From the sequence record MN850604.1: a stretch of DNA of 50,596 bases. The stretch is one strand, 5' to 3'. Position numbers and translations under genes: made by a program. Below the pieces are notes generated by a model. The model had not been told where the DNA came from. It saw nothing but the letters and a program-made list of their open reading frames with translations, and did not search any database. Positions 1,120 through 50,596 of this stretch are shown one piece after another. Source of the DNA: Escherichia phage tunzivis. Each line of letters starts with the position of its first letter. Positions within the stretch are counted from its first letter, which is position 1.

Positions 1120-1166
1120 TGAATTTTTATTTAAATCAATGACAAATTAAATCAAAAACTTGCAAA

Positions 1167-1197
1167 GGGGCGGCGTTTGTCGCCTCTTTTTTTTTGT
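1167..1197 (+). terminator. rho-independent terminator
   Basis: GC stem (GGGGCGGCG..CGCCTC) followed by run of 9 T. Confidence 0.6.
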
Positions 1198-1265
1198 TTA
1201 ATTTTTTACCATGTACGTTTATCATGCGGTCAATATATTGACTTTAATTAATATGGAGAATAAAA

Positions 1266-1481
1266 ATGAAAGATTTTATTAACGCAGCTACCGCTGGATC
1301 TGGCGGTTCATCTATCGCAAGCGCCGCTACAGGGCAGTTAACCATTGCTATTGCCAGCTTTGTTTTAATGGCTGCATTCGGTGCATGGGGCGCTTACCTT
1401 CGCTGGCGTGATAGTAAAAAATTCCACGAAGCGATCGAAAAAGGTGATATTCAAAAAGCTATTGAAATCAGGGGCAAGTAA
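1266..1481 (+). CDS. putative holin
   Basis: 71 aa; one hydrophobic TM stretch ([21 protein letters not shown]) and charged C-terminus; stop overlaps endolysin start (TAATG); RBS GGAGA upstream. Confidence 0.5.
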
Positions 1482-1972
1482 TGAGCATAAAGAACAGGGT
1501 AGCGGCTGCTGCCTTTGGCGTTGCGGTTGCCTTGACTTCTCCACTTCTTGAAGAGATCGAAGGGGTAAGATACAAGCCATACAAAGATATTGCTGGAGTA
1601 TGGACGGTTTGCGCAGGAATCACCGGACCAGATGTTATCCTGGGGAAAACGTACACTAAAAAAGAGTGTGATGCTTTGTTGGCTAAGCATATCCAGGTTG
1701 CTAAAAAGGAAGTTGACAAGCAAGTTAAGGTTGATATTCCTGATAGTATGCGTGCAGCAATGTACTCATTCACTTACAATGCAGGTGTGGGAGCTTTCAG
1801 AAATTCAACAATGCTGAAACTCATCAACCAGGGGAAATTAAACGAGGCTTGCGATCAGCTTTATCGTTGGACTTATTACCATAACCCAAAAACAGGAAAG
1901 CGCGAGAAGTCTAAAGGCTTACTTAACAGGCGCAAGGTCGAATACAAATATTGCACAATGGATCTGAAATGA
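1481..1972 (+). CDS. SAR endolysin (phage lysozyme, R21-like)
   Basis: 163 aa; N-terminal Ala/Gly-rich signal-anchor-release segment ([14 protein letters not shown]); lysozyme E-D-T region ([28 protein letters not shown]); [16 protein letters not shown] motif typical of P21/P22-type lysozymes. Confidence 0.85.
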
Positions 1973-2364
1973 TGAAGAATTTTTTACTTACACCAATCGC
2001 AATGGCGGTGATCTTGTCTGGATGTTCAAGCGTTACGCCACTGACCGGATTAATCGGCAGTAAGCCGGAAATCACAGCACAGGCTGGAGCGGAGAACGTG
2101 AAGCAGACAGTTGGCATTACAGCAAAGCAGGACGCCAGCACAAAACAGGAAACCACAATAAAGGAATCTGCGGTTGACAAGGTGGACACGTCCAGCAAGA
2201 AGGATTTCACAACATCAACCATTCAGGCCAATACCATCAAGGCAGACAAAATTCAGGTCGTGCAGGGTAATAACGGCAGATGGTACGATCCAGTAATCAT
2301 ATGCGTGGTTGTGTTTCTTGTGCTGATTTGTCTTTACTGGAGAGAAAAGAAAAAGGAGGCTTAA
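1969..2364 (+). CDS. unimolecular spanin (u-spanin, T1 gp11-like)
   Basis: ATG at 1969 overlaps endolysin stop (ATGA); lipoprotein signal with lipobox LSGC; C-terminal TM segment ([16 protein letters not shown]); position after endolysin. Confidence 0.6.
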
Positions 2365-2381
2365 TGCCTCCTTTATTTTTA
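2354..2381. terminator. bidirectional terminator between convergent lysis and early-left operons
   Basis: AGGAGGC-ttaat-GCCTCCT hairpin flanked by A-run and T-run. Confidence 0.55.
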
Positions 2382-2603
2382 TGCGTCGGGCCACATATGA
2401 GTTTCGTTTGTTGGCTTGTTCGATTCGTCGTACTGCCTTACTTCAATGCTGCAAGTGTCGCCGTACATTTCTGAAATCTTGCGCTCATTTTCAACCGCCG
2501 ATTGCTCACTCCAGCCTGAATCCTTATCGTAAACTGTCGGAATTTCAGAAGAAGATCCATTTGCATGATTGTATACGCGAACTACTAAAAACTTGCTGGA
2601 CAT
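2379..2603 (-). CDS. hypothetical protein
   Basis: ORF 2379..2654; start chosen at internal ATG (MSSKFLVV) preceded by AAAAAGGAAAA; motif-type promoter upstream. Confidence 0.4.
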   Translation of the reverse strand: MSSKFLVVRVYNHANGSSSEIPTVYDKDSGWSEQSAVENERKISEMYGDTCSIEVRQYDESNKPTNETHMWPDA

Positions 2604-2664
2604 AATTTTTCCTTTTTGGTTGGTTCGTTTCGATGAAACAAATATACCCGACACAAGGTCTGGA

Positions 2665-50505: not shown

Positions 50506-50596
50506 GGATAGTTATCATGTGGCGCTTGTTTGTTCTACCGTTACCCGTTATCATCGCTGTTACAGTTATGTACCATATAGTGATGAGATAGGTGGC

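Follow-up and report, generated by a model that had tools for sequence, protein, structure and literature searches.

A T1-like lysis cassette with a holin, a predicted SAR-type endolysin and a predicted unimolecular spanin in Escherichia phage tunzivis

Do three tightly packed genes near the start of the Escherichia phage tunzivis sequence (MN850604.1) encode a complete lysis system, and if so, of which type? Throughout, the window refers to the whole stretch of DNA that we analyzed, which is 50,596 nucleotides long. An earlier note, made from the letters alone, had read these genes as a lysis cassette, and this reading is supported by the matches of the three predicted products to PHROG holin, endolysin and spanin families and by their synteny with phage T1. 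We conclude, with a probability of about 0.9, that the locus is a canonical lysis cassette (holin, signal-anchor-release (SAR) lysozyme and unimolecular spanin (u-spanin)) of a T1-like siphophage belonging to the Drexlerviridae, genus Warwickvirus. The cassette is already known and is annotated in the public records of near-identical phages. Here we show its gene structure, homology, motifs and synteny, and we propose how its products may act.

The open reading frame (ORF) list and the sequence revealed three ORFs on the + strand, located between two terminator-like hairpins (Table 1). The three genes that the earlier note had read in 1266-2364 are present in the ORF list, at 1266-1481, 1481-1972 and 1969-2364. 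The stop codon of the holin gene and the start codon of the endolysin gene share 1 nt (TAATG), while the endolysin stop and the spanin start share 4 nt (ATGA). The upstream hairpin is localized downstream of a DNA repair exonuclease gene, inside the 146-nt gap before the cassette, and the ORF list contains no + strand ORF of at least 30 aa in 1120-1265. At the other end, the second hairpin overlaps the spanin stop codon and separates the cassette from a convergent gene on the - strand. For the spanin we chose the ATG at 1969, as annotated in the relatives of this phage. A TTG at 1951, which would add 6 aa, was rejected, as it has no ribosome-binding site and the resulting extension is polar.

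Table 1 Features of the lysis cassette and its borders, in positions of the window
Feature	Position	Strand	Description
Terminator-like hairpin	1164..1189	+	11-pair stem with 6 GC pairs, then a T-run; TTTTTTGTTT
Shine-Dalgarno-like GGAGA	1255..1259	+	6 nt 5' of the holin ATG; read from the sequence
Holin gene, 71 aa	1266..1481	+	T1 gp13 homolog
Endolysin gene, 163 aa	1481..1972	+	GH24 / T4-lysozyme-type muramidase, predicted R21 SAR class
Putative SAR segment codons, endolysin residues 7-23	1499..1549	+	Uncharged run; aligns with the R21 SAR domain
Endolysin catalytic triad codons, E27-x8-D36-x5-T42	1559..1606	+	Motif; invariance in the family alignment
Unimolecular spanin gene, 131 aa	1969..2364	+	T1 gp11 homolog
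Spanin lipobox codons, L16-S17-G18-C19	2014..2025	+	Predicted lipoylation at Cys19; Ser20 at +2
Spanin C-terminal inner-membrane helix codons, residues 107-124	2287..2340	+	Hydropathy, AF2, homologs
Bidirectional terminator-like hairpin	2352..2374	.	9 pairs, 5 GC; scores on both strands

The region 1100-2500 shows 98.4-99.7% DNA identity to many deposited Escherichia phages. The near-identical phages are members of Warwickvirus and include ExeQuayColi, tonn, tunus, swan01, JK16, JLBYU01 and vB-Eco-KMB46. Gene calls in these phages are the same (216, 492 and 396 nt), and their records label the genes as holin, endolysin and either Rz-like or 'putative unimolecular spanin'; the spanin protein of vB-Eco-KMB46 is 100% identical to that of the window. 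The taxonomy given for tonn and JLBYU01 is Drexlerviridae; Tempevirinae; Warwickvirus. Over another 24.6 kb of the window, the identity to this group is 98-99%, and the end of the window continues into its start. Thus, the joined ends and the identity to these phages indicate that the window is a complete, permuted Warwickvirus genome. There is effectively no difference between the window and these phages, and it represents another isolate of the genus.

The earlier note had suggested a homology search against gp11-13 of phage T1, and BLASTP identified all three proteins as homologs of the T1 products. The holin is 55% identical to gp13 (71 and 71 aa, E 4e-29), the endolysin is 66% identical to gp12 (163 and 162 aa, E 1e-80), and the spanin is 44% identical to gp11 over 131/133 residues (131 and 133 aa, E 6e-38). 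The T1 cassette (NC_005833) has the same gene order, the same tight overlaps and the same LSGC lipobox; it is also preceded by a DNA repair exonuclease gene and carries an annotated terminator at the equivalent downstream place. In contrast, T1 carries two genes between those for the exonuclease and the holin, one for an HNH endonuclease (gp15) and a small one (gp14); at this place the window has only the 146-nt gap with its terminator. The gp14 gene sits at the position where the KanT1 paper puts the standalone SH3 gene of T1 (PMC13164509). The two phages also differ in subfamily, with the window belonging to the Tempevirinae and T1 to the Tunavirinae. A 2026 comparative paper reports the exonuclease-holin-endolysin-spanin module in 508 of 522 Drexlerviridae (PMC13164509), and we observed a holin followed by an endolysin with a hydrophobic N-terminus and then a u-spanin in viral contigs with lengths of 48-53 kb, numbering about 45.

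The family matches of all three proteins lie far outside what chance would give. The second gene product hits the main PHROG endolysin family with E 3e-55 and PF00959 (Phage_lysozyme) in Pfam with E 4e-39. In a PDB sequence search, the top matches were the full-length R21 endolysin of phage 21 (3hde, E 5e-47) and RrrD of DLP12 (4zpu, E about 1e-46). These alignments begin at residue 2 of the endolysin, and thus run through the SAR domain, with approximately 50% identity over the whole length. R21 and RrrD (3hde, 3hdf, 4zpu) carry the same E-x8-D-x5-T triad. E27, D36 and T42, together with four cysteines (C44, C63, C124 and C158), are invariant in the 39 members of the family, and RrrD also has these four cysteines. 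The AF2 model of the endolysin (pLDDT 87) gave TM scores of 0.81-0.83 to full-length R21 (3hde) and RrrD (4zpu), and of 0.59 to truncated R21. The protein differs from R21 in three ways. Six residues are deleted ahead of the catalytic Glu, after the SAR segment, where R21 has ITGPSGND, which leaves only 3 residues between the uncharged run and E27. Another 6 residues are inserted near residue 135 (HNPKTGKRE), and the uncharged run is shorter (17 aa) and less hydrophobic.

The N-terminus of the endolysin has the composition of a SAR segment. It carries K4 and R6, followed by an uncharged run of 17 residues (7-23), 53% of which are G, A, S or T, and then by E24-E25. This character is kept across the family while the sequence varies: the 39 members begin with 1-3 basic residues, continue with an uncharged run of 14-19 aa in which G+A+S+T make up a median fraction of 0.47, and reach the catalytic Glu after 2-3 more residues. 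No cysteine is present in the segment, the only cysteines of the protein being the four listed above, and 37 of the 39 family members likewise lack one there. The lack of cysteine points to regulation of the R21 type and not to the disulfide caging of P1 Lyz. The claim of the earlier note that the endolysin has a SAR-type N-terminus instead of being cytoplasmic is supported by its alignment to the R21 SAR domain from residue 2 onwards. In the literature, T1 gp12 and TLS gp68 are classed as SAR endolysins, as predictions (PMC6139136; PMC13164509). The SAR behavior proposed here is inferred from that of R21, which has been tested by others.

The last gene of the cassette encodes a protein that matches phrog_1804, 'Rz-like spanin', with E 3e-47; PHROGs have no curated cut-offs. 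In SpaninDB, spanins that share at least 40% identity across 40% of their length form a family (PMC6139136), and the 44% identity over the full length therefore places the protein in the T1 gp11 family. gp11 is the prototype u-spanin, complements the lambda RzRz1 defect and has LSGC as its wild-type lipobox, and members of its family are present in cassettes with a pinholin and a SAR endolysin (PMC6139136). The SpaninDB supplements list the u-spanins of AHP42, JK06, TLS and KP34; we found in them no entry for the endolysin type of T1, either SAR or canonical.

The earlier note had proposed that a single protein carries both an LSGC lipobox and a C-terminal membrane helix, and our hydropathy and lipobox script confirmed both elements. 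The database contained 748 homologs of the spanin, and we scored these features on the best 120 of the 748. In this set the lipobox is L/ISGC in 116 proteins and LPGC in 3, the remaining one being an N-terminal fragment; in spanin alignments that include T1, G18 and C19 are invariant. An Asp at +2 acts as a Lol-avoidance signal and blocks sorting to the outer membrane. The residue at +2 is Ser20 here, and among the best 120 of 748 homologs it is Ser in 115 of the 116 lipobox proteins and Ala in the other. With Ser at this position and thus no Lol-avoidance Asp, the protein would have the signal for outer-membrane sorting. The C-terminal hydrophobic segment covers residues ~105-124, reaches a Kyte-Doolittle peak of 2.37 and is followed by the basic tail REKKKEA; 114 of the 116 lipobox-bearing homologs (best 120 of 748) also have it. 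No cysteine is present in periplasmic residues 20-104, and only 1 of the 116 homologs in the same set has one there, while a periplasmic cysteine was found in 0/58 surveyed u-spanins (PMC6139136). Together, the homology to gp11 over the full length, the same LSGC lipobox and the C-terminal transmembrane domain (TMD) agree with the T1 gp11-type u-spanin proposed before. We infer the lipoylation and the function of the protein from T1 gp11, for which they have been tested by others.

Conservation is highest in the N-terminal half of the periplasmic domain and lowest in the TMD. The latter fits a report, as relayed in a review, that the spanin TMD serves as an anchor only. In the AF2 monomer, which was built from a 34-sequence alignment (mean pLDDT 53), the signal helix and the TMD alone are confident, with a helix at 107-128; residues 24-87 have a pLDDT below 50 and no secondary structure. 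A crude measure showed beta-periodicity at 29-37, 44-52 and 80-97, and it is this measure and the literature that suggest a beta-rich periplasmic domain. Like lambda Rz/Rz1, the u-spanin would link a lipid anchor in the outer membrane to a TMD in the inner membrane across the periplasm. Unlike Rz/Rz1, it consists of one polypeptide and not two, and lacks coiled coils, periplasmic cysteines and an embedded frame. A search for a second lipobox in the six frames of 1100-2500 revealed that only the LSGC at 2014 has an upstream start codon and signal. A hidden two-component spanin was excluded, since the same region contains no embedded o-spanin frame.

Pfam and NCBIfam returned no significant family for either the holin or the spanin. 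Weak matches to RIFIN, Prominin, DUF3262, spanin2, TraV and Cor were rejected, as they fall far below the curated cut-offs of these databases and reflect membrane or lipoprotein composition. The holin was instead assigned through PHROG, where it matches phrog_2877, 'holin', over residues 1-71 of 71 (E 4e-32), and through its database homologs, of which 26/26 carry PF27028. These matches place the 71-aa protein securely in the gp13 holin family.

The topology of this holin is less straightforward. The earlier note had seen only one clear transmembrane segment. This stands as far as strong hydrophobicity is concerned, because residues ~25-45 form a strong TMD (Hessa sum 0.45 and Kyte-Doolittle 1.9 for 25-43); it does not hold for the rest of the protein, which has a second, weakly hydrophobic segment at the N-terminus. 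Residues 4-23 are conserved, uncharged and rich in Gly, Ala, Ser and Thr, with G13 and G14 invariant or nearly so, and the C-terminal tail is basic. This architecture resembles that of the phage 21 pinholin S21-68 and its DLP12 homologue EssD. These are also 71 aa long, combine an N-terminal segment of weak hydrophobicity, rich in Gly, Ala and Ser, with a strong TMD that has many small residues and with a basic tail at the C-terminus, and are encoded directly upstream of a SAR endolysin. According to the literature, TMD1 of phage 21 is a releasable SAR-type helix. In contrast to S21-68, the gene has no dual-start motif and a single Met, and the loop between the two segments would have only ~3 residues. 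Sequence similarity to S21-68/EssD is also undetectable, with no BLASTP alignment at E <= 100. A two-TMD pinholin topology is plausible for the holin, with the name pinholin used by analogy only.

Each of the three assignments has a competing explanation. The holin could instead have a single TMD, N-out/C-in, as in a class III-like protein, with the Gly/Ala/Ser-rich N-terminus as a periplasmic tail. In favor of this, TMD-grade hydrophobicity is confined to residues 25-43, the N-terminal 19-mer having a Hessa sum of 7.8, and the GenBank record of T1 states that gp13 'contains single transmembrane domain'. With two helices, the loop would have only ~2-3 residues (TGQ), and there is no similarity to S21/EssD. 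However, segment 4-22 is well conserved and lacks charged residues in 25 of 28 diverse homologs, and the Hessa sums of the family (5.6 in T1, median 7.5, range 5.6-9.0) bracket the 6.5 of EssD TMD1. Moreover, the partner of the holin is a predicted SAR endolysin, the usual partner of pinholins, and two TMDs or a class II pinholin have been proposed for T1 and TLS (PMC6139136; PMC13164509). We therefore regard the single-TMD topology as a possibility of some weight, though clearly below an even chance.

The alternatives for the other two proteins are much weaker. The endolysin N-terminus could be a Sec signal peptide cut by signal peptidase I, yielding a soluble periplasmic lysozyme. The K4/R6 n-region, the short hydrophobic core and A15-V16-A17, with G13 upstream, are signal peptide-like, this A-x-A being in principle a possible signal-peptidase site. 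The segment is also much less hydrophobic than the R21 SAR domain, with a crude Hessa-scale sum of 6.7 for the N-terminal 19-mer against 0.8 for RrrD/R21, and a cut after A17 would leave 9 residues ahead of the catalytic E27, a spacing close to that of T4 lysozyme, whose catalytic residue is E11. However, A-x-A does not discriminate between the two possibilities, because the Ala-rich SAR domain of R21 has a comparable one and such motifs arise by chance in Ala-rich SAR domains. Neither is it conserved, position -1 being M or T in some members (ALT in T1, ALM in TLS-like proteins). The identity to R21/RrrD extends through the N-terminal segment, the AF2 model is closer to full-length than to truncated R21, and the predictions in the literature for T1 gp12 and TLS gp68 point the same way. 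In addition, an active lysozyme secreted constitutively would kill the host before assembly completes. Cleavage is thus very unlikely, and the uncleaved SAR anchor is the preferred reading. Even less probable is a reading of the 131-aa product as an ordinary lipoprotein of the phage without a lysis role, such as a Cor-like superinfection exclusion protein. Its N-terminus does have a weak PHROG match to Cor (E 7e-5), and other lipoprotein families match weakly too, but the Cor-type matches cover the signal/lipobox region and lie far below any family cut-off, whereas over its full length the protein matches the spanin PHROG and T1 gp11. The conserved C-terminal TMD is not a feature of Cor-type lipoproteins, and the u-spanin gene is always the last of the lysis cassette.

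Our model is as follows. The cassette would form a single late transcription unit between the two terminators. The holin would build up in the inner membrane, its basic C-terminus facing the cytoplasm, and would trigger at a set time, collapsing the proton-motive force. The holes are probably small, as in a pinholin, and the N-terminal segment may be either a releasable first helix or a periplasmic tail; for both the pinhole size and the holin topology we offer a hypothesis only. Meanwhile, the endolysin would be exported by Sec and held inactive, tethered to the inner membrane via its uncleaved Ala/Gly-rich SAR helix. Depolarization would then release this helix and the enzyme would refold, as in R21 of phage 21, allowing the E27/D36/T42 site to cut the peptidoglycan. 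The spanin would be lipoylated at Cys19, with its lipid end sorted to the outer membrane, given Ser at +2, and its C-terminal helix in the inner membrane, so that one polypeptide would reach across the periplasm, passing through the murein mesh. Degradation of this mesh would allow the spanins to move and collapse, and they would disrupt the outer membrane, probably through its fusion with the inner membrane.

A variant of this model is also conceivable. Here, gp13-type holins would be convergent pinholins unrelated to S21, with residues 4-23 as the releasable first helix, and tethered gp12-type endolysins would be kept inactive by their proximity to the membrane, the catalytic Glu lying 3 residues from the anchor, and not by R21-style refolding. 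We put forward this combination tentatively, at a little short of even odds.

Finally, the earlier note had taken the u-spanin as a strong indicator of T1-like ancestry. The genome is indeed that of a member of the Drexlerviridae, but the indicator is weaker than proposed. u-spanins of the gp11 family are also found on contigs of 43-45 kb with a different upstream arrangement, and KP34 is a u-spanin phage according to SpaninDB; thus, a u-spanin does not by itself mark a T1-like phage, and the ancestry is shown by the complete cassette together with the rest of the genome. The finding has little significance beyond correct annotation: the cassette confirms a T1-like genome (Drexlerviridae, Warwickvirus), and adds one more holin, SAR-endolysin and u-spanin module to those of hundreds of catalogued genomes.

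The end of the window (50518-50596) joined to its start (1-6) gives an in-frame run into the exonuclease gene, and the window therefore looks like a complete genome opened at an arbitrary point. In the RefSeq record of tonn, a close relative, the exonuclease gene begins at an upstream GTG and is 27 codons (81 nt) longer. The motif AGGTGG precedes the ATG at window position 4, which appears to be the likelier start. ARAGORN found no tRNA or tmRNA genes in the window (1-50596).

The DNA repair exonuclease gene is separated from the holin gene by a gene-free stretch of 146 nt (1120-1265), in which a terminator-like hairpin is the sole element. In phage T1, by contrast, this interval holds two genes: gp15, which encodes an HNH endonuclease, and the small gp14. 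A standalone SH3-domain gene occupies the same position in 188 of 522 Drexlerviridae, chiefly Tunavirinae, Braunvirinae and Rogunavirinae (2026 paper, PMC13164509). Unlike these carriers, the tunzivis genome, a member of the Tempevirinae, has no such gene before the holin.

Minus-strand ORFs at the spanin end of the lysis cassette
ORF	Coordinates	Strand	Location
99-aa ORF	1923-2222	-	antisense to spanin gene
small convergent ORF, 91 aa counted from GTG	2379-2654	-	directly beyond bidirectional terminator

The product of the antisense ORF would be Cys-rich and hydrophobic, with several lipobox-like strings. No homology support was found for this ORF, and in all likelihood it merely mirrors the coding strand as an artefact. 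The convergent ORF product matched nothing in NCBIfam; its counterpart in relatives is a hypothetical protein of 74 aa, as against 91 in the window.

More distant u-spanins of the gp11 family (27-35% identity) are encoded on viral contigs of 43-45 kb (L057-L078). No R21-type endolysin lies directly upstream of these u-spanins, so their lysis cassettes are built differently from those of Drexlerviridae. These contigs probably represent KP34-like podophages; KP34 is entered in SpaninDB as a u-spanin phage.

Finally, about 20 of the records matching the T1-like cassette and genome were deposited as Campylobacter jejuni phages. Contamination of laboratory stocks by T1-like phages is a known problem (PMC13164509), so these host labels may be worth checking.
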